A DNA stretch of 60,958 bases from Candidatus Nomurabacteria bacterium (GTDB taxonomy: Bacteria; Patescibacteriota; Minisyncoccia; Phycocordibacterales; UBA9973). The stretch is from the NCBI GenBank assembly GCA_016196605.1, contig JACPXJ010000045.1, forward strand, positions 1 through 60,958, read 5' to 3'. A program made the position numbers and the translations under genes. The notes under the pieces were generated by a model. That model was given only the letters and a program-made list of their open reading frames with translations, did no database searches and was not told the DNA's origin. Shown here piece after piece: positions 38,619-59,766 of this stretch; positions within the stretch are counted from its first letter, which is position 1; each line of letters opens with the position of its first letter.

Positions 38619-38654
38619 TGTCAAACATCTTTGTCAAACATCGGGTGTTTGACA
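38619..38654. repeat. S-type REP: half site plus full palindrome TGTCAAACATCGGGTGTTTGACA, 5' of RAYT-1
   Basis: tgtcaaacatc (38619-38629) and tgtcaaacatcgggtgtttgaca (38632-38654). Confidence 0.8.
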
Positions 38655-38683: not shown

Positions 38684-39364
38684 ATGAACAGAGATAATAT
38701 TTCAGTTGATGAGTATTACCATATTTATAATAGGGGAGTAGGTAAAAAGATAATTTTCAAGGACGACAGAGATAGGATCCGTTTCTTGTTTCTTATTTTG
38801 TATTTTCAAGCAGAAAATAACTTTCCACAAATTTCGAGAATTATATCCTCTTTTGTCAAACATCGAGTGTTTGACATTGATAATAAAATTATAAATAATA
38901 TAATCTCGAAAAGATTTGTCGAGTTGGCAGGTTTTGCTCTGGTGTCTAACCACTTTCATCTAATTGTTAAAGAAGCAAAAGAGGGTGGTATTGGAAAATA
39001 TATGCAAAGGGTTTTGAATTCTTATACAAAATATTTTAATACTCGTTATGGAGTTACGGGGCATCTTTTTGAAGGTCCTTATAAAGCGGTTCATGTTGAA
39101 GACAATGAACAGTTGTTGCACCTTTCCGCTTACGTACATCTAAATCCGCGAGAATTAAGCGAATGGAGAAAGAGGGAAGATAGCTTTCCTTGGTCAAGCT
39201 ATCAAGATTATGTAAAAGAAAATCGTTGGGGATATCTTCTGAAGAATGAAATTATCGTTGAGCAGTTTAGAAATAAAAAAGAATATAAAGATTTTGTCGA
39301 AACCAGTGGCGCAAAAGAGCTAGAAGAGGAGCTTGCTATAGACTGTCAAACATCGGGTGTTTGA
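38684..39364 (+). CDS. REP-associated tyrosine transposase-like protein (IS200/Y1 HUH family), RAYT-1
   Basis: YHIYNRGV N-terminus, HUH motif SNHFHLIV, conserved GHLFEGPYKAV and catalytic-Tyr region LSAYVHLNP. Confidence 0.75.
   Translation: MNRDNISVDEYYHIYNRGVGKKIIFKDDRDRIRFLFLILYFQAENNFPQISRIISSFVKHRVFDIDNKIINNIISKRFVELAGFALVSNHFHLIVKEAKEGGIGKYMQRVLNSYTKYFNTRYGVTGHLFEGPYKAVHVEDNEQLLHLSAYVHLNPRELSEWRKREDSFPWSSYQDYVKENRWGYLLKNEIIVEQFRNKKEYKDFVETSGAKELEEELAIDCQTSGV
38854..38876. repeat. S-type REP copy inside the RAYT-1 coding sequence
   Basis: tgtcaaacatcgagtgtttgaca. Translated as FVKHRVFDI. Confidence 0.75.
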
Positions 39365-39366
39365 CA
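39344..39366. repeat. S-type REP at the 3' end of RAYT-1 (supplies the last codons and the stop)
   Basis: tgtcaaacatcgggtgtttgaca. Confidence 0.8.
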
Positions 39367-44660: not shown

Positions 44661-45314
44661 ATGATTGGAGATATTGCTCATGTATGCAACAGGGGAGTTG
44701 AGAAGCGAAAAATTTTCATTAATGAGAGTGATTATTCTAGATTTGTGAACAATTTACTTTTGCTGAATAATAAGGAGGGTAAAATCAGAACGCGCAGGAA
44801 AAATCCGTTTGAAGAAGTCGAGGAAGTTTTACATGGCAGGAAAAAGTTGGTGGAAATACTCAAATGGAGCTTGTTGCCTAATCATTATCATTTATTGTTA
44901 TATGAAGTTGCTGAAGGCGGTATTTTAGAATTTACGAAACGTTTAGGCAATGCTTATACAAAATATTTTAATATTAAAAACAGCGGCAGAAGCGGATATT
45001 TATTTCAGAACAGTGCAAAAATAATTCCAGTCTCAAATAATAGCCAATTTCTTTATATACCGATTTACATCGATCTTAATTGTGCTGATCTAACATATCC
45101 AAATTGGAAAAATTCAAAAAATAACGATTCGAAGAAAATCATAAATTTTTTGGAATCGTACATGTGGTCAAGTTTTAGAGATTATTTTGGGAAAGGTGAG
45201 TTTTCGGCTGTCGTCAATAAAGAACTATTTTACGATTTGTTTGATACCAATGAGAAAGAATACAAAAAAGATATGGAAGGTTTTATCAGAGAACCAATCG
45301 TTCAAGATTTCTAA
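44661..45314 (+). CDS. REP-associated tyrosine transposase-like protein, RAYT-2
   Basis: HVCNRGV N-terminus, HUH motif PNHYHLLL, GNAYTKYFN...GYLFQNSAK, and a Tyr-containing IYIDLN region. Confidence 0.7.
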   Translation: MIGDIAHVCNRGVEKRKIFINESDYSRFVNNLLLLNNKEGKIRTRRKNPFEEVEEVLHGRKKLVEILKWSLLPNHYHLLLYEVAEGGILEFTKRLGNAYTKYFNIKNSGRSGYLFQNSAKIIPVSNNSQFLYIPIYIDLNCADLTYPNWKNSKNNDSKKIINFLESYMWSSFRDYFGKGEFSAVVNKELFYDLFDTNEKEYKKDMEGFIREPIVQDF

Positions 45315-46661: not shown

Positions 46662-46686
46662 AGTGGTCAACCTGGCAGGTTGACAC
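46662..46686. repeat. R-type REP (slightly truncated) between proS and mreB
   Basis: agtggtcaacctggcaggttgacac. Confidence 0.8.
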
Positions 46687-47750: not shown

Positions 47751-48537
47751 GAAAACTAAACAGAAAAAATTTCTTCGCATAGGCCTAGCGGTCGTCCTTC
47801 TTGTTGTCCTGTTTTATTTTCGTTCCGGGATTTTCGGCGGCCTCTCTAGTGTTGCCCATGTTGTTTTTCGTCCTGTATTAATTTTAGGCGAGAGTATAGG
47901 AGAAAAAATAAAAAACATCGGGAATTTCTTTGCTTCCAAGAATTATTTAGAGGATAAGATAGAGAATCTAGAGTCAAAAATATCCGAGGGGGAGGGAAGA
48001 ATATCCAATTACAATTCTATTCTTGCGGAGAATCTTTCTTTGAAGGAAATTCTTGGCAGAAAAAATTTGAAAACCGAGATGATTCTCGCTGCGATTTTAG
48101 CGAAGCCGAATCAGAGTCCCTATGACACTCTCTTGATCGATATCGGAGTGAACGAGGGAGTAGAAAAAGGGGATATGGTTTTCGCGCTTATGGATGTTCC
48201 GCTTGGGGTTGTTTCTGAAGTTTACGCGAATACTTCAAAAGTGATTTTATTTTCATCAGCAGGCGTCAAAACGCAAGCGATAATCGAAAAAAATATTTTT
48301 GTGGAGCTTGTCGGGCGGGGCGGGGGCAATTTTGAAATGATATTGCCGAGAAATTTTACTCCGGAGAGGGGCGACGAGGCGGTGATCCCCGGCATCATGC
48401 CGTATGCGCTGGGAGTAGTCGAGACGATAATTTCCGATCCGCGCGATCCCTTTGTCAAAGCTCTGCTCGTCTCTCCCGTCAACATCCAAGAACTCAAATT
48501 CGTGCAAGTGGAGAGGTCCCGAGATCAGCCGAGATAG
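47731..48537 (+). CDS. mreC: rod-shape-determining protein MreC
   Basis: N-terminal TM helix, coiled coil, and beta domains (GDMVFA...GVVSEV, GDEAVIPG...LGVVETI). Overlaps the mreB end. Confidence 0.85.
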   Translation: MSYLLDKKTKQKKFLRIGLAVVLLVVLFYFRSGIFGGLSSVAHVVFRPVLILGESIGEKIKNIGNFFASKNYLEDKIENLESKISEGEGRISNYNSILAENLSLKEILGRKNLKTEMILAAILAKPNQSPYDTLLIDIGVNEGVEKGDMVFALMDVPLGVVSEVYANTSKVILFSSAGVKTQAIIEKNIFVELVGRGGGNFEMILPRNFTPERGDEAVIPGIMPYALGVVETIISDPRDPFVKALLVSPVNIQELKFVQVERSRDQPR

Positions 48538-48570: not shown

Positions 48571-48615
48571 ATCTCCTTCTCCTTTACAAGGAGAGGGTAA
48601 GGTGAGGTGAATTCT
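48571..48615. repeat. P element, intergenic
   Basis: atctccttctcctt-tac-aaggagagg-gtaaggtgaggtgaattctc. Confidence 0.8.
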
Positions 48616-48695
48616 CTAAGAACCTCCGATCTGAATTAGTCTGCGTTAGGTCTTGCCTAACGCATTACTCGAGTCTCTAAAAACATTACTTTGCC
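48585..48695 (+). repeat. degenerate relative of the X element (X3)
   Basis: The 3' part cgagtctctaaaaacattactttgccttcgc is about 26/30 identical to 57595-57624. The P-element tail can pair with it if G-U pairs are allowed. Contains the inner hairpin gcgttagg-tcttg-cctaacgc. Confidence 0.4.
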
Positions 48696-48767
48696 TTCGC
48701 AATATTAAGCTGGAGATTTATTTTTTGAACAAACCTTCCTAAACCATTTTCTATTATCTTTTTCTTG

Positions 48768-48811
48768 CCGAGATCAGCCGAGATATCTTGAAAACAAAGA
48801 ATATCTCGGTC
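48768..48811 (+). repeat. Z element copy 2 (left boundary of the giant-gene segment)
   Basis: gccgagatcagccgagatatc-ttgaaaacaaaga-atatctcggtc. Confidence 0.8.
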
Positions 48812-48817
48812 ATTACA

Positions 48818-48917
48818 GCTAGGGCAGTATAAAAAGGGTACGCATAAAATTCTACTGAATTTTTGCGCTGGGTACGGCCTACCCGGCCTGCGTAGCCCCT
48901 TTTTATACTGCCCTAGC
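48818..48917 (+). repeat. X element copy X1 (about 26-bp outer stem, conserved core)
   Basis: gctagggcagtataaaaagggtacgc ... gcgtagcccctttttatactgccctagc. The core contains aaaattc-tact-gaatttt and tacccggcct. Confidence 0.75.
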
Positions 48918-48943
48918 TTTCATAAATCTTGCATTACTAAAAA

Positions 48944-49056
48944 AAATCCCCGTTTTGACAAAAATTCTAGGAGTCGTATCAACCTGCTAAAGCAGTCCTG
49001 TCCTCATGGTCCTCGAGGGCGAAGGCGGGGGAATTTTTCGGTCAAAATGGGGATTT
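48944..49056 (+). repeat. Y hairpin (about 24-bp outer stem enclosing about 64 nt)
   Basis: aaatccccgttttgac+aaaaattc ... gaattttt+cg+gtcaaaatggggattt. One G-T position in the stem. Confidence 0.7.
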
Positions 49057-49065
49057 TGCTCTTAA

Positions 49066-49143: not shown

Positions 49144-52100
49144 ATGGATTCAGGTATATTTTCGCAAAATAATTCTAGTGAAAAAAAATATATCTCGACT
49201 AAGGAGGCGAGTATCCGTACGGGCTACTCCAAAGACTACATCGGGCAGCTCGCTCGGGCAGGAAAAATCGATTCCAAGAAAATTAATCGCGCCTGGTATG
49301 TGGAAGAAAGTTCGCTGTTTAGCTACAAAGACGTATCGGCTGAATTAAAGAAAGAGAATGGAAAAATTTTTGCTGAAGCAAATTCTCCTCTTGCGATTCC
49401 TCCCCTCCTTGTGGAGGAGGGGGTAAGGGGTGGTGATTCAGAAATTACCACCTCGCCCTTCGGGCACTCCTCCTTCATCAAGGAGGAGAGGGTAGCAGAA
49501 ATTTCCGATGTCTCTTCGGTTTTGAAAGTTTATCAGCACCAGCCGCAAAAAAATTATTTGGGCAAGCAAATTTTTTCAAAGTCGAGGGAGTTCCTCACCA
49601 TCGTCCTCACAGTCGGCGCGGCCGCGGGCATCATCTATGCGAATAATTTAAAACTCCCGAATTTTTTACAGGATTTTATCGGTCCGGAAAATTCTCAAAC
49701 TGCCAATACCATAGACTCCCTCAAAGATGCTTATGGGAATTTTGTTACCGATCCTGCGAATGCAAGCGTGAGCGAGAGTGTAGCGGTAAACATAAAGCAG
49801 GATGACTTGCTGAACGCTTACAAAAATTATCTAACCAAACCCGGGACCCCCTCTTCAATTCTCCCCCTTAACAAGGGGGAGAGGCCGAAGGCAGAAGGGG
49901 TAATTTCTTCTCTCCGCGCTGTCTCCCCGTCAATAAGCAATGCCAATCTGGTCTCCGCTATAAAAACTATTCTTGCCCAGAAAGAATTTCGGGATCAGCT
50001 TCGCGGACCGGAAGGACCACAGGGAGCATCGGGACTTCAGGGACCGCAAGGACCAACCGGAGTTCCTTCTATCTTTTCCATTCCCAGCGCGCCGACTGTC
50101 AACACTTTGGCTTATGTTCCCGCCACTGTCATTCCTCCCAATCCGTCGTCTAACTTTGCCGGCGCCACTTTGTTGGGAGCTACTAATCTATCTTCCGGCA
50201 GTTTTTCAACCACTACCGCCAGCATTGACACTTTGACGGTAAACGGGCAAGCCACCATTGGCGGAACATTAACAGTCACCGGCACGGCGACAATACCGAC
50301 CGTGGCCGCCACCGCTTCCACCACCGACACCCTCGCCGTGGGCGGGGGCTATGGCTCGACCGGAGCATCCATCTCGGCTATCGGCGACATTGAGGCGAAT
50401 GGCGCGCTCACTATAGACGGCGCTTCCACCCTGACCGGCTCGACAGTGATCGGCTCGGCCGCTTCGTCCACCACCACCATCGGCTCGACCACGACCCCGG
50501 GAGCGCTCACTTTGCGCGGAGCCACAACTTTGGATAATAATTTTTCGCAGACCGGCGCGAATACTTTCAGCACCGGCACGGGAGCGATCAGCCTAAACGG
50601 CGCGACCACGGTAACCGGCAGTAATACATTTGCAACCGGTACCGGCGCAGTCACGTTCAATAACGTCACCACAAACATCGCTTCTGACAATCCAATTATC
50701 GATCTTACTTCCGCCACGACGCTCTCTATCAACACCACGACTAACCGCCCGATAACCACCGGCACCGGACTCTTTACCGCCGGCGGCGATGTAACCATCG
50801 CCGGCACCACCGGCGCCACTCTCTCCGGTATCGGCGCGGGCATCACTTTCACCGGCACCGGCAATCACGACATCACCGCAAGTTCCGGTACTTTGCGTAT
50901 CGGATCAAATACCATCATCGGCAGTATCGAAGCGCTGGACGAAACGGTAGACATCGGCACGCCCGCTGTCCGTTTTGATAAATTTTACGCGAATGAAGTG
51001 AATGCGACGACCCTGGTCGGAACTATCACCGGAGGAAACTCCTCCGCCGAAACTTTCACCATCAATTCCGACAATGCCACCGCCGACACTGAAAATTCCT
51101 ATCTCTCTTTTGAAAGAGGCTCCAGCATTCCGAACGCTCTCCTCGGCTGGGATTCCACCAATGATGAGTTTGATTTGAATTCTGGGCTAAATGTTACCAA
51201 TACTATTGGATCAGCTGCGCATTTGCGACTGAGTTATGACGCTTCCAACTACAATAGTTTCACCACATCTTCGACCGGAGATCTGGCGATTAGTTCAACA
51301 GGTACCAATGGAAACATCACTTTAACTCCAAGCGGAACAGGCAAAACCGTCATCGCCTCAAACAGCACCTCATGGACGTATGCGTCCACAAATTTGACTC
51401 TGTCCACCCGCAGTAATGGCAGAGGATTGACGTTTGCGACCACGGATGCCAATGACTTCACCCTTTCGGTGTTCAGGAATTCAATACCGGCGGCGCCTAC
51501 AGGCATTACAGCGCTGGAATTTGAGGGGCTGGACGATGCCGGCGGATCAGTCGCTTATGGACAATTGACCGTTAATGCAACGGACATTGCCGCGGCCACT
51601 GTTACAGGAGAAATGGTGCTGTCGCTGGAAAAATCCAATGTGCATTCTCATGTTCTCCGTGTCCAACCAGCGACCATCCGGTTTTTCAATACTCGCACTA
51701 GCGATACCGTTTTCGAAGCGTTGCAACTCGACTGGACATCGAACATAGCGCGTATTTTCACTAATTATTCCGGCGGCGGTTCGGCGCGCGCTCTGCAACT
51801 TGGCGGCGGCGGCAGCACGCAATGGGAGTTTGCGGATGATGCGACCGGGTTCCGTCCGCTGACGGATGATTCGTCGTCCACTGGATTGCTTGGTACCACC
51901 ACGAAGCGAGTTTACCACGGGCGTTTTGGGACTGGCGGTGTGTGGATTGGCAACATGACGAGCGCGGCGGGTTTGCTCAATGTGCGTTCTTCAAGTGGCG
52001 GAACTTTTCGCGTCGACGCAACGTCCGGTGCGGCTTCTATTACGGACACCACCGCCTCCTCCTCCACCACCACTGGATCGCTCATCAACGCTGGAGGGTT

Positions 52101-56208: not shown

Positions 56209-57534
56209 ATGCATTTTGAGATAAAGAAAAAACTAAAGAATAGTCTCGGTCGCGCTGGAGTTTTAACCACAGCTCATGGAGCCATAGAAACTCCGGCCTT
56301 TGTCTCAGTTGGCACAAAAGGAACAATAAAATCTCTAAACCCAGAGCAGGTAAAAGAAGCTGGAGCGCAGGTAGTTCTTGCGAATACTTATCATTTATAT
56401 TTGCAGCCCGGAGACGAGCTGGTGCGGGATGCCGGCGGACTGCATAAATTTATGAATTGGCCGGGACCTCTCATGACCGACTCCGGCGGCTTCCAGGTTT
56501 TTTCTCTCGGCGCGGCTTATGGCAAGGATGTCTCCAAGATAATACCCCTACCCAACCTCCCCCTTAATAAGGGGGAGGAGAAAGGAGGGGGTCCGGAACG
56601 TTTTGACGATTCGGCTGCCCCTCGTTTGGCAAAAATCGGGGCTGATGGCGTTTCCTTTAAATCGCACCTTGATGGTTCTATTCATTACATTACTCCGGAA
56701 AAATCAATCCAGATCCAGCACAATCTCGGCGCGGATATAATTTTCGCTTTTGATGAAGCCACCAGTCCAGCGGAGGATTACAAATATCAGGAGGAAGCTC
56801 TTGCCCGCACTCATGCTTGGGCGAAGCGAAGTCTAGAACATCATCAGAAATTATGTTTCACGCCAGAAGCTTTCTTTTCGGGGTCGCCATTTTCCTGCTG
56901 GAAAATTTGGCTCCATCCTCAGCTCGCCAGCCTGCGGAGACCCCGCAAAGAAACTTCTGTCGCTTCACATCCTGCGCTTTTTGGCATAGTTCAGGGCGGA
57001 CTGGAGAAGAATCTGCGCAAAAAGTCAGCGGAATATATCGGGAGCCTGCCTTTTGATGGCTTCGGCATCGGCGGCTCATATACCAAGGAGCACATGGAAG
57101 TAGTGGTTAAACTCGTAAATGAAATCCTGCCGGAAGAAAAGCCTCGCCACCTGCTCGGCATCGGCGAGCCGGAGGATCTTTTCATGGGCGTGGAAAATGG
57201 CGTGGATCTTTTCGACTGCGTGGCGCCGACTCGTCTCGGCAGAAACGGAACTATTTATACCCACCAAGGAAAAATGATTATTATGAATAAAGAATTTAGA
57301 AAAGATTTTAATCCCATCGAGTCTGATTGCAGTTGCTACACTTGCAAAAATTATACTAGAGCATATGTTGCTCATTTATTTCACGGCAAAGAAATGCTCG
57401 CTGGGACTTTGGCTTCAATCCACAATTTATATTTCATCGTCAACTTGGTGAAAAATATCCGGCAATCTATTCTCGACGAAAATTTTTTCGAATTTAAGGA
57501 GGAGTTTTTAAAAAATTACAGGAAGGTAAAGTAA
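56209..57534 (+). CDS. tgt: queuine tRNA-ribosyltransferase (with two repeat-derived insertions)
   Basis: TPAFVSVGT, LANTYHL, LMTDSGGFQVFSL, ALFGIVQGG, GFGIGG, CxCxxC Zn site (CSCYTCKNYTRAY). Confidence 0.93.
   Translation: MHFEIKKKLKNSLGRAGVLTTAHGAIETPAFVSVGTKGTIKSLNPEQVKEAGAQVVLANTYHLYLQPGDELVRDAGGLHKFMNWPGPLMTDSGGFQVFSLGAAYGKDVSKIIPLPNLPLNKGEEKGGGPERFDDSAAPRLAKIGADGVSFKSHLDGSIHYITPEKSIQIQHNLGADIIFAFDEATSPAEDYKYQEEALARTHAWAKRSLEHHQKLCFTPEAFFSGSPFSCWKIWLHPQLASLRRPRKETSVASHPALFGIVQGGLEKNLRKKSAEYIGSLPFDGFGIGGSYTKEHMEVVVKLVNEILPEEKPRHLLGIGEPEDLFMGVENGVDLFDCVAPTRLGRNGTIYTHQGKMIIMNKEFRKDFNPIESDCSCYTCKNYTRAYVAHLFHGKEMLAGTLASIHNLYFIVNLVKNIRQSILDENFFEFKEEFLKNYRKVK
56543..56594. repeat. P element, in-frame in tgt
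   Basis: acccctacccaa-cctccccctt-aat-aagggggagg-agaaaggagggggtcc. Translated as IPLPNLPLNKGEEKGGGP. Confidence 0.8.
56864..56959 (+). repeat. X element copy X5, in-frame in tgt (96 nt)
   Basis: Arms cagaagctttcttttcggggtc / gagaccccgcaaagaaacttctg. Core attttcc-tgc-tggaaaat...tcgccagcctgcg. Translated within CFTPEAFFSGSPFSCWKIWLHPQLASLRRPRKETSV. Confidence 0.75.
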
Positions 57535-57623
57535 TATTTTAAAGCACGTATAATTTTCTGCTGAAAATTTACTCCGTCTCGGTTACCCGCCTCCGAAGTC
57601 TCTAAAATATTACTTTACCTTCC
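57521..57623 (+). repeat. X element copy X2 at the tgt stop codon (perfect 21-bp arms, 61-nt core)
   Basis: ggaaggtaaagtaatatttta ... taaaatattactttaccttcc, followed by tttttt. Core aattttc-tgct-gaaaatt...ctcggttacccgcctccgaag. Confidence 0.8.
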
Positions 57624-57676
57624 TTTTTTACTTTACTTTCTTTACTTAGCTGTTATATACTAAACAAATTAAAGAA

Positions 57677-59077
57677 ATGAAAAAGCTAGCGAAGAAAAAG
57701 GGCGCGCAGAAAAATTGTAGAAAATTTTGGAAGCTCGGAGTGGAAGAATGGAATACTCAGTTTTTTAATGTGAGCCGCGATGCGGAGCTCACCGTGACTG
57801 AAGGCCATCATATTTACAATCTTGCCGACATGGCCCGGAAGTATGGCACGCCGCTCCAGGTGGTTTTCCCTTTTATTCTAGAAGACCGGCTGAAGGATCT
57901 CATCGGCTATTTTCAGGCCTACATGAAGATTTACGGATACAAAGGAAAGTTCTTTTACCATTATCCGATGAAGGTGAATCAAAACAAAGAATTTGTCCTG
58001 CCGCTTATCTCCGAAGGCGCAAACTTGGAAGTGACTTCTGCCAACGAACTCTGGCTGGTGAAGAAGCTCTGGGAAGGAGAAAGATTTAACAGCAAAATAC
58101 GCGTGCTTTGCAACGGGCCGAAAACTCACGCCTATCTCGATCTGATAGAGGAACTGCGCTCTAAGGGGATGAATGTAGCGCCGATCATCGAGGGTCCCGA
58201 GGAAATCGAGCGGCTCACAAAATATAAGGGGGACATAGGGCTTCGCATAGACCTCGCGATCAAGGCGGACACGCACTGGGATAAAAAATTTGACCGCTTC
58301 GGCCTTTCCGAAAAAGACGCGCTCTCGATGCCAAAGATAAAGAACCTGAAGATCATGCATTATCATATGGGATCGCAGATAAAAACGCAGAAAAGCATTT
58401 TTGACGCGGTCAAGCGGGCTTTCGGAATTTATGCGCAATTGCAAAAAATACATCCCGGGCTCGACACCCTCGATATCGGCGGCGGGTTCGGCGTTCCTTA
58501 TGAAAAGAAAAAGTTTTATACCGCGAAAGGCGTTTCCAGCAAGATCATTAAAATATTGAAGAATTTATCCGACAAAGCCGGCATTCGCCATCCGAACTTG
58601 GTGGTGGAATGGGGGCAGTATATCGTCGCTCCGGCGGAGATAACGATCTATAAAGTGCTCTCTGAAAAAATAATACCTAAGGCGAATGCCAAGAGCTGGT
58701 ATGTCATTGACGGAAGTTTTATGAATGATCTGAAAGACACCTGGGCAATCCATCAGAAGTGGCATGCCATACCAGCAAACAATATGCACGGAGGGCTGAA
58801 GACCACATGGCTCGCGGGCAGCACTTGCGATTCGGATGATAAGTATACCGCCGGCGGCAACTATATCCTTTTGCCGAAACTTCATGATAACGAGGAGCAA
58901 TATGTGGCAGTTCTCGACACCGGCGCCTATCAGGACGGGCTTTCTTCGCACCATTGCCTTCTTTCGAGTCCCATGAAGCTGGTCGTTGCCGACGGCACAG
59001 TCAGTATCTCCAGAAAGCGCGAGACCGCGGACTCTATCGGCAAACTTTTCGGCTGGACCAACGGGACAAAAAATTGA
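57677..59077 (+). CDS. PLP-dependent decarboxylase, Orn/DAP/Arg decarboxylase family (SpeA-like)
   Basis: YPMKVNQNKEF (PLP lysine), HYHMGSQI, DIGGGFGVPY, GSTCDSDD. Confidence 0.75.
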   Translation: MKKLAKKKGAQKNCRKFWKLGVEEWNTQFFNVSRDAELTVTEGHHIYNLADMARKYGTPLQVVFPFILEDRLKDLIGYFQAYMKIYGYKGKFFYHYPMKVNQNKEFVLPLISEGANLEVTSANELWLVKKLWEGERFNSKIRVLCNGPKTHAYLDLIEELRSKGMNVAPIIEGPEEIERLTKYKGDIGLRIDLAIKADTHWDKKFDRFGLSEKDALSMPKIKNLKIMHYHMGSQIKTQKSIFDAVKRAFGIYAQLQKIHPGLDTLDIGGGFGVPYEKKKFYTAKGVSSKIIKILKNLSDKAGIRHPNLVVEWGQYIVAPAEITIYKVLSEKIIPKANAKSWYVIDGSFMNDLKDTWAIHQKWHAIPANNMHGGLKTTWLAGSTCDSDDKYTAGGNYILLPKLHDNEEQYVAVLDTGAYQDGLSSHHCLLSSPMKLVVADGTVSISRKRETADSIGKLFGWTNGTKN

Positions 59078-59090
59078 AAATTTTTCTGAT

Positions 59091-59570
59091 ATGAATCAAA
59101 AAATTTTAATAAGTTTTGCTCTTGTAGTTATTTTTATACCCTTATTTTACTTGACTATTTACCCAAGTGGTCAACCTGGCAGGTTGACCACTACCAGTTA
59201 CTACGTAAAGATTGCCGGGCAGAATATCAAAGTGGAAATTGCCGACACACCAGACAAACAAGCGCAAGGACTTTCCGCAAGGCAAGGCCTTTCAGAAGAT
59301 GAGGGAATGCTGTTTGTTTTTGAAAATGCCAGCGTGTATCCGTTTTGGATGAAAGATATGAAGTTTGCAATTGATATAATTTGGTTGAATGAGGATAAAG
59401 AAGTGATTTATATAAAGAAAGATGCGCGGCCCGAGCTTTTTCCGGAAACTTATGGCCTCAAGAATGAGCAAGGGGAGTCCTTGCTCACGAAATATGTGCT
59501 GGAGGTTGTCTCTGGATTTTCTGAAAAAAATAATCTGAAGGTGGGGGACAGGGCGGAATTTTCGTATTGA
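59091..59570 (+). CDS. DUF192-family protein (signal-anchored)
   Basis: ADTPDKQAQGLSARQGLSEDEGMLFVF...PFWMKDMKFAIDIIWL. Start at MNQKIL preferred over the ORF-track start at 58986. Confidence 0.7.
   Translation: MNQKILISFALVVIFIPLFYLTIYPSGQPGRLTTTSYYVKIAGQNIKVEIADTPDKQAQGLSARQGLSEDEGMLFVFENASVYPFWMKDMKFAIDIIWLNEDKEVIYIKKDARPELFPETYGLKNEQGESLLTKYVLEVVSGFSEKNNLKVGDRAEFSY
59166..59192. repeat. R-type REP, in-frame in the DUF192 gene
   Basis: agtggtcaacctggcaggttgaccact. Translated as SGQPGRLTT just after the signal anchor. Confidence 0.85.
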
Positions 59571-59671: not shown

Positions 59672-59766
59672 GAAATCAAACTTTTTCCGGTACGGAATTT
59701 TTGAAGCTTAAAAATTCCTGAAATTCTCGGTTCGCCAGCCTCGAAACTCCTCCAAAAGTTTATTTC
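59672..59766 (+). repeat. X element copy X4 (AT-rich 13-bp arms with one bulge)
   Basis: gaaatcaaactttt ... aaaagtttatttc. Core ggaattttt-gaagctt-aaaaattcc ... ctcggttcgccagcctcgaa. Confidence 0.55.

Follow-up and report, generated by a model that had tools for sequence, protein, structure and literature searches.

The window analysed here is a stretch of 60,958 nt (contig JACPXJ010000045.1, assembly GCA_016196605.1) from a bacterium of Candidatus Nomurabacteria, in the Paceibacteria of the Candidate Phyla Radiation (CPR). It holds four copies of a palindromic sequence element, here called X. X1 (48817-48918, +) is intergenic, lying between mreC and a gene for a 2130-aa protein with an S74-peptidase domain. 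X5 (56864-56959, +; 96 nt, 32 codons) sits in frame within tgt (56209-57534, +), the gene for queuine tRNA-ribosyltransferase (TGT). X2 (57521-57623, +) directly follows the same gene and overlaps its 3' end, and X4 (59672-59766, +) is intergenic, 3' of a DUF192 gene. An earlier note, made from the sequence of the window, had described the family and proposed three explanations for it, and its claims are taken up below where our results bear on them.

Each good copy folds as a three-way junction of P1, a long copy-specific outer stem (13-22 bp in the window copies); P2, a hairpin that has a one-base bulge and is closed by a UGCU, UACU or UCCU tetraloop; and P3, a smaller conserved hairpin of the form CTCGGCT-CGYC-AGCC...GAG. 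In X1, the P1 arms occupy 48817-48838 and 48897-48918, with P2 at 48841-48867 and P3 at 48873-48894; the corresponding positions are 56864-56885 and 56939-56959, 56886-56911 and 56916-56938 in X5, and 59672-59685 and 59754-59766, 59694-59718 and 59724-59745 in X4. X2 has its left arm at 57521-57541, P2 at 57548-57572, P3 at 57577-57598 and its right arm at 57603-57623. The left arm of X2 contains the tgt stop and the right arm runs into a T run, as the earlier note had read; the left arm also takes in the final tgt codons before the TAA stop, and the T run, TTTTTT, is followed by the promoter of the next gene (57632-57661). RNA folding of each copy against dinucleotide shuffles gave z-scores of -9.9 (X1), -8.5 (X2), -6.4 (X5) and -1.7 (X4, the weakest hairpin). 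The reverse strands fold about as strongly and, by the same measure, better for X2, X4 and X5. The arms are complementary within a copy, as had been claimed: P1 is fully Watson-Crick in X1 and in X2 (22/22 pairs each).

The four copies belong to one family. A covariance model (R2) built from 15 copies in related genomes, none of them from the window, was run over the 61-kb window with filters off and recovered X5 (E 3e-13), X2 (E 2e-7), X4 (E 1e-5) and X1 (E 5e-5); the sole further match below E ~1 was the reverse strand of X5. A covariance-model search had been suggested in the earlier note, which counted five copies. Four of these return from a model trained elsewhere and further copies exist in related loci; the fifth, X3, has no match and is better described as a mosaic (see below). 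Overall, the palindromic unit is repeated four times in the window and at least 15 times in related loci, and its conserved part measures ~75-85 nt, an inner inverted repeat (TTTTnGGGGTC ... GACCCCnAAAA) enclosing P2 and P3.

Covariation supports the fold. With P2 stems delimited manually (7+4+7 nt centred on the loop), 98.9% of the cells from 13 distinct copies were paired and all seven pairs had changed on both sides; none of 500 shuffles did as well and no slid register came close. The differences between the A/T hairpin stems are thus compensatory, as proposed earlier. P1 and P3 were supported by RNAalifold, and P3 carries a compensatory change between related loci L175 and L176 (GGCC/GGCC to GCGC/GCGC). 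Plain identity between the cores of the window copies is modestly raised (0.51-0.62 versus 0.47-0.48 for shuffles), with every shuffle beaten in only three of six pairs; together with the recovery by R2, this upholds the similarity that the earlier note saw in the cores. That it recognised no named RNA family in the core agrees with Rfam 15, where two tRNAs alone pass the gathering threshold in the window and nothing relevant appears up to E 10 in 56800-57700.

Insertion hotspots in TGT and other proteins

A point missed by the earlier note is that X5 is stop-free and in frame in the tgt open reading frame (ORF). Its translation reads ..PEAFFSGSPFSCWKIWLHPQLASLRRPRKETS.. and includes the predicted tryptic peptide ...GALPLGSSACETPR. 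Placed by sequence alignment to the Zymomonas mobilis TGT, an AlphaFold2 model of our TGT being too poor (predicted local distance difference test, pLDDT, 46), the insert covers query residues 211-250 and stands in place of seven loop residues, 185-191 of the Z. mobilis enzyme.

Alignment of the 120 best homologues revealed an insert of 25-35 residues at the X5 position in most Paceibacteria TGTs. By motif classification, the forward X core is present in 43 of the 120 (for example SLAGSLSP..ALPLGSSACETPRKE) and the backward core in eight (GVSQADEPRGSAP..SGDSDP), while 49 have another recurring peptide type or an unclassified insert and 20 have none. At the DNA level, the tgt loop holds a forward X in L001, L003, L084, L161, L164, L166 and L174, a reverse X in L170 and L173, other hairpins in L002, L004 and L008, and nothing in L172. 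Across the 21 tgt loci examined, eight carried an insert and 13 had none, with the frame kept in all eight. The state of the loop varies even among TGTs that are 92-97% identical outside the insert, so gain, loss, replacement and inversion are fast relative to protein divergence. Among tgt-site copies the core (74 nt) is 0.79-0.92 identical, above the 0.57-0.77 of the flanking tgt coding DNA, which indicates constraint at the nucleotide level.

Two further observations concern the same enzyme. TGT P0081 has two elements in tandem. A second insertion, of ~37 residues, is found in all Paceibacteria TGTs (56515-56625 in the window, TGT residues 103-139); it falls between residues 113 and 114 of the Z. 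mobilis TGT chain, is conserved in sequence and has no obvious palindrome.

X is also found in other genes. Additional copies came mostly from exact-protein look-ups, scans of contigs with TGT having returned mainly distant TGTs. A profile of the forward-frame peptide gave 26 matches among 1.84 billion representative proteins. Hosts include KsgA/RsmA (L169, 924-1012; profile and DNA look-up), UvrD/PcrA with two copies on opposite strands (L168, 3309-3397 and 2398-2484), TsaD (P0124, P0127) and a second site in TGT (P0123), and short spurious ORFs are called over intergenic copies (for example P0121, P0122 and P0128). In L168 (contig_281, ENA ERZ1286166) uvrD is broken into four ORFs; its frames are unreliable because the contig resembles an error-prone long-read assembly. 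The KsgA loop between DIL.F and YKIIANIPYNITG resembles the TGT loop in its variety, holding a forward X, a reverse X, one of several TGT-loop families, or nothing. At least four further insert families are common to the tgt and ksgA loops of different Paceibacteria, with shared peptides such as ..LGRSDGDGQRKFSAENFRGE.., ..FSGPRFSGSLSRPDHSKNL.., ..NGLAG.GT.RTEDL.K.. and ..FSSLRPS..WDPREAQN...

As judged from protein searches, X is read in frame in only two of its five open frames. The other three were essentially absent from 5.8 billion proteins, apart from one spurious ORF, and the choice of frame is therefore non-random. In-frame X peptides would be loop segments rich in Gly, Ser, Ala and Pro. 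This pattern argues that the inserts are probably translated, with only the two benign readings surviving.

Stem arms, host codons and orientation

Arm length in X ranges from 13 to 29 nt (13-29 nt). Most arms pair perfectly, and G.U pairs are not in excess. Within the stem, conservation across copies is confined to the inner 10-15 nt; where these meet the variable outer part, many copies leave a single C of the 5' arm unpaired. Outer arm identity among the four window copies is at chance level (0.30-0.48 versus 0.35-0.48 for shuffled arms). The earlier claim that arms share no similarity between copies therefore stands for these four and fails for the pair X2 and X3, because the right arm of X2 recurs in X3: positions 48672-48698 of X3 are homologous to the 3' end and right arm of X2 (24/27 matches). 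Likewise, the contrast that had been drawn with transposons and REPINs, whose termini are conserved, captures the variable outer termini of X and is overstated, because the inner stem is conserved.

Part of the variable stem is host sequence. In five of ten tgt copies (L001, L003, L084, L173 and L174), only 0-1 nt separates the palindrome from the Phe codon downstream, in the invariant LFGIVQ motif, and in four of these five it starts directly after the conserved Leu of a K-x-L motif. Since the palindrome reaches the Phe codon, the host Ala-Leu codons are included in the stem, and the left arm follows the codon spelling of the lineage (GCGCTT/AAGCGC, GCATT/AATGC, TTTTTTG/CAAAAAA). A palindrome running into invariant host codons in five TGT lineages indicates that host sequence has been copied into the stem. 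X2, too, holds host sequence in its left arm, namely the final tgt codons and the stop; in relatives the next promoter comes after the tgt stop, directly or beyond a short spacer, and nothing X2-like lies in between. A connection of the inner arm with the tgt 'LFG' codons, sought by eye, is unproven.

Arms also travel. The copies in L175 and L176 are 93% identical including their 26-nt arms, and their flanks and neighbouring genes are unrelated; the arms thus move with the element as well. These two results divide the earlier suggestion that insertion generates an inverted duplication of flanking DNA: host codons do enter the palindrome, in half of the tgt copies, which supports it in part, but identical arms at unrelated loci point to arms that move with the element.

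X occurs in both orientations. Minus-strand copies at the same gene site (L170, L173) score 92-96 bits, the same as plus-strand copies. L173 and L174 carry X at one and the same site between the same arms, and the core of one is 90% identical to the reverse complement of the other and 51% identical directly, a clean flip. Stem mismatches on the element strand comprise two G.U, 11 A.C and 10 others, counts that are phylogenetically non-independent; P2 and P3 do contain a few G.U pairs on that strand. An excess of A.C over G.U mismatches is the opposite of what selection on a sense RNA would predict.

Competing explanations

In our view X is probably a selfish palindromic DNA element family, small and non-autonomous, that inhabits Paceibacteria (Candidatus Nomurabacteria and relatives). 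Direct observation supplies the family membership, the fold, the in-frame copies, the hotspots, the flip, the palindrome over host codons and the arms shared between loci, and judged from these sequences a selfish palindromic element acting at the DNA level is much the best reading. The fold and the core sequence would be kept as DNA, whichever way the element faces, as a T- or Y-shaped junction with a stem. Its copies occupy spacers between genes and also, in frame, permissive loops in TGT (two sites), KsgA, UvrD (two sites) and TsaD. Templated fold-back or template-switch copying within the hairpin may keep the stem perfectly Watson-Crick and lengthen it. As the stem grew outwards, neighbouring host sequence would become part of it, up to the point where purifying selection on host codons halts the growth. 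The same copying, or recombination between the arms, could flip the core between them. The moving unit would be the whole hairpin with its current stem, acquired arms included. Captured flank, mixed with sequence that co-evolves rapidly, would give the arms their copy-specific look. As mobiliser, the leading candidate would be an HUH/Y1 transposase that works on X folded as a single strand.

Several points weigh against this interpretation. Many tgt-site copies share ancestry, so that counts are not independent, and the case for host sequence in the stem comes from about three independent lineages. Translation of the inserts is read from reading frames alone, full-length protein lists are biased against out-of-frame copies, and TsaD may be split by its X copy (P0124, P0127). 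Copy number is low, with four in 61 kb here and 1-2 per 21-kb locus elsewhere. No target-site duplication is definable: in the flanks of eight copies, inspected by eye, repeats of 4-5 nt lie at inconsistent offsets. All four window copies are on the plus strand, co-oriented with the surrounding genes, which an RNA role predicts likewise. No gene, transposase or other, has X-like ends in the ~2.5 Mb of related loci examined. Set against miniature inverted-repeat transposable elements, X accordingly has no related autonomous element with the same ends in those loci, and its outer termini are at chance level where conserved terminal inverted repeats would be expected. The X core had no matches in viral contigs.

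The neighbourhood of X contains further hairpin families and two Y1 genes. X3 (48578-48700, +; z -1.6) is not an X copy. Its left part (48589-48614) resembles 49414-49439 in element Z; its centre is a REP-like hairpin, GCGTTAGGTCTTGCCTAACGC (48642-48664; REP, repetitive extragenic palindrome), resembling the hairpin CGACTAGGTCTTGCCTAGTCG that flanks the Y1_Tnp gene of L174; and its right part is the stretch shared with X2. The local alignments behind this reading scored above all 300 shuffles. An 18-nt direct repeat, CCGAGATCAGCCGAGATA, brackets the 230-bp stretch holding X3 (48519-48537 and 48768-48786); its first copy is the 3' end of mreC, and each copy is followed by its own hairpin made from that sequence. 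Z (49399-49491, +) belongs to a different hairpin family, its 93 nt adding 31 codons in frame to the 2130-aa S74-peptidase-domain ORF; the N-terminal region around the site is not alignable to the L166 orthologue. Y (48943-49057, +) represents a third family with arms of 17-22 bp and a core of 71-81 nt. By eye, its translation resembles the '..SHSILEGQ..SG.SED..' inserts in the tgt loop of other genomes.

The first Y1 gene (38684-39364, +; Pfam PF01797, E 2e-7) encodes an IS200/RAYT-like HUH transposase. On either side of the gene stands the hairpin GTCAAACATCGGGTGTTTGAC (38633-38653 and 39345-39365), a third copy of which lies inside the ORF (38855-38875; 21 nt, one mismatch). A second Y1-transposase homologue (44661-45314, +), which matches the Y1_Tnp of L170 (tblastn E 4e-27) and has no Pfam match, has GTGGTCAACCTGSCAGGTTGACCAC on both sides (44609 and 45315), the loop orientation being inverted. 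Further GTGGTCAACCTGSCAGGTTGACCAC copies are found at 46663, adjoining the start of mreB, and at 59167, within a mechanically called ORF (58986-59570) between the ornithine decarboxylase stop (59077) and the likely DUF192 start. The second homologue and its hairpins look like a small REP/RAYT system. Y1 genes are also present in the X-bearing loci L170, L174 and L003; in L170 and L174 they share a syntenic position beside a DsbA-like gene and are missing from the syntenic L164 and L172. Y1 genes with dispersed hairpins imply that single-strand hairpin mobilisation exists in these genomes.

X might itself be of REP/REPIN type or derived from IS200/IS605, moved by resident Y1 transposases that recognise P2 and P3. 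We hold this as a tentative alternative, possible though doubtful. The two Y1 genes in the window and the others in X-bearing loci would provide the enzyme, and REP-like hairpins are dispersed (including 38855 and 59167), one of them forming the centre of X3; the conserved P2 bulge and the unpaired C in the 5' arm are also in its favour. The motif ATTACAG precedes both X1 and X2 but is missing at the other copies, and X-like sequence flanks none of the Y1 genes (38684, 44661, L170 and L174), which have other hairpins there. To our knowledge, moreover, IS200/IS605 transposition does not duplicate flanks. Y1 transposases are only a candidate class of X mobiliser, and nothing links them to X. A 7-mer likeness between the inner arms of X and the REP hairpin of L170 is probably due to chance.

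A structured RNA with its closing helix free to vary was the first option of the earlier note, taken here as a functional RNA acting in the sense transcript (cis-regulatory, protein-binding or a ribozyme). It would account for covarying P2 and P3 helices, conserved loops, the few G.U pairs that P2 and P3 do contain on the element strand and the shared direction of all four window copies and their genes, and X2 with its U-run could end tgt transcription. The terminator scan, however, picks up none of the X copies; the T run is present at X2 alone, and the loops are 55-85 nt. X is equally conserved in either orientation at the same gene site, with one flipped pair, and its reverse strand folds as well or better in X2, X4 and X5. 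Reading frames run through X in at least four protein families and strongly favour particular frames of it, Rfam has no match even to E 10, and the stem mismatches are A.C rather than G.U. Antisense conservation, the flip, in-frame reading, the Rfam result and the A.C mismatches together suggest, at the level of sequence, that an RNA gene is unlikely.

The second option of the earlier note was a small core that enters the loops of hairpins or terminators already in place, the arms being old host hairpins. Some insertion sequences do target REP loops, X2 lies where a terminator would be expected, and plain hairpins occur at the tgt loop in L008 and after tgt in L002. Insert-less relatives argue otherwise: L172 has no hairpin at the tgt loop, and in L001 and L164 the stretch from the tgt stop to the next promoter is likewise free of hairpins. 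Arms holding invariant Ala-Leu codons could not have been half of an older palindrome, and identical arms recur at unrelated loci. We judge this explanation quite improbable.

The least probable of these alternatives, in our view very unlikely, is that the hairpins are immobile, having arisen by local template switching at fragile loops and been inherited vertically, with the core shared through gene conversion or convergence: the palindrome does extend into host codons, simple coreless hairpins occur at the same loop (L008), and template switching can make perfect stems in one step (PMC5453318; 10.1101/2023.04.19.537475), but the same 60-nt core with its P2/P3 architecture recurs in spacers and in genes unrelated to one another, identity reaches 93%, arms included, between two copies whose loci are unrelated, and tgt-loop states are scrambled among near-identical TGTs.

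Other candidates were rejected more simply. An assembly artefact does not fit the recurrence of X in independent NCBI, JGI, ENA and Logan assemblies; an archaeal-type bulge-helix-bulge intron does not fit the flanks of X5, which lack pairing beyond P1; and programmed ribosomal bypass is superfluous for inserts that are in frame and stop-free. Hammerhead, twister and similar ribozymes were set aside for want of their core motifs and of an Rfam match. Integron attC sites have conserved ends and a variable centre, the opposite layout to X.

Related systems and significance

Functionally, the closest known systems, by analogy, appear to be Rickettsia palindromic elements (RPEs) and the hairpin and double-hairpin elements of mitochondria. 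In Rickettsia, many genes contain RPEs inserted in frame (PMC10969869). Like X, they are palindromic repeats of ~100-150 bp in a reduced genome, fall into several families, encode no transposase, and lie both between genes and in frame in unrelated housekeeping genes, to which they add a peptide (PMC10969869). X differs in its host, which belongs to a different phylum (CPR/Patescibacteria), in its conserved three-way-junction core with a copy-variable outer stem, and in that the same protein loops are struck repeatedly, by several families and in both orientations. We know of no flank absorption or core flipping in RPEs comparable to that seen in X. X is therefore filed as working like an RPE rather than as a member, because the host phylum differs.

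Mitochondrial hairpin and double-hairpin elements resemble X as mobile-looking repeats in compact genomes. Those of fungi and sponges sit in genes and stay in transcripts, occupying spacers, variable rRNA regions and occasionally protein genes (PMC2800124). Unlike X, they are organellar and have conserved stems, and an enclosing copy-specific long stem has not been reported for them. In the nematomorph mitochondrial genome, long perfect inverted repeats lie in translated genes with both arms coding, as in X (PMC6649704); there, however, the arms encode conserved protein regions, and a shared mobile core is not described. REP/REPIN-RAYT systems and IS200/IS605 derivatives are short hairpins handled as folded single strands, and such Y1 genes occur in the window. 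X departs from them in that its core flanks no Y1 gene, it is ~100 nt long with three helices, its termini are not conserved and many of its copies are in coding sequence.

Work on bacterial quasi-palindromes and on chloroplast inversions offers a precedent for arm perfection and loop inversion. Template switching (PMC5453318) or quasi-palindrome correction would explain the perfect arms, stem growth and loop inversion of X. These are mutational processes and not element families, and they leave the core shared at unrelated loci unexplained. Parvovirus inverted terminal repeats are T-shaped hairpins with flip and flop forms that an HUH enzyme nicks in the stem; the T or Y shape of X, its flip and the HUH genes of its genome recall these as a likeness only. 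The literature searched contained no description of such hairpin elements in CPR bacteria.

If X is what we propose, tiny streamlined CPR/Patescibacteria genomes tolerate several selfish hairpin families in the essential genes tgt, ksgA, uvrD and tsaD, and the same protein loops show rapid gain, loss, replacement and inversion of hairpins. X would be a second, independent case of the Rickettsia phenomenon, one that appears widespread in metagenomic data, and its copies would offer extensive natural data on the way new protein segments arise from palindromic DNA. The behaviour of the stem is possibly the more general lesson: with host codons turned into palindrome, arms carried elsewhere and a core that flips, short stretches of host sequence can be acquired and relocated by hairpin elements. 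For annotation, the inserts are a warning: they inflate protein lengths, create spurious small ORFs and might be taken for RNA genes.

A bolder and rather unlikely extension is that X and its sister families make up a new structure-defined class of mobile hairpins, their T-shaped fold handled by an HUH-type enzyme along a rolling-hairpin-like route. If so, one hairpin-primed HUH route would be enough to account for flip and flop, for perfect stems, for host flanks captured into the mobile unit and for the repeated in-frame remodelling of the same loops in essential enzymes, and X-like elements would keep supplying the smallest bacterial genomes with new protein segments.

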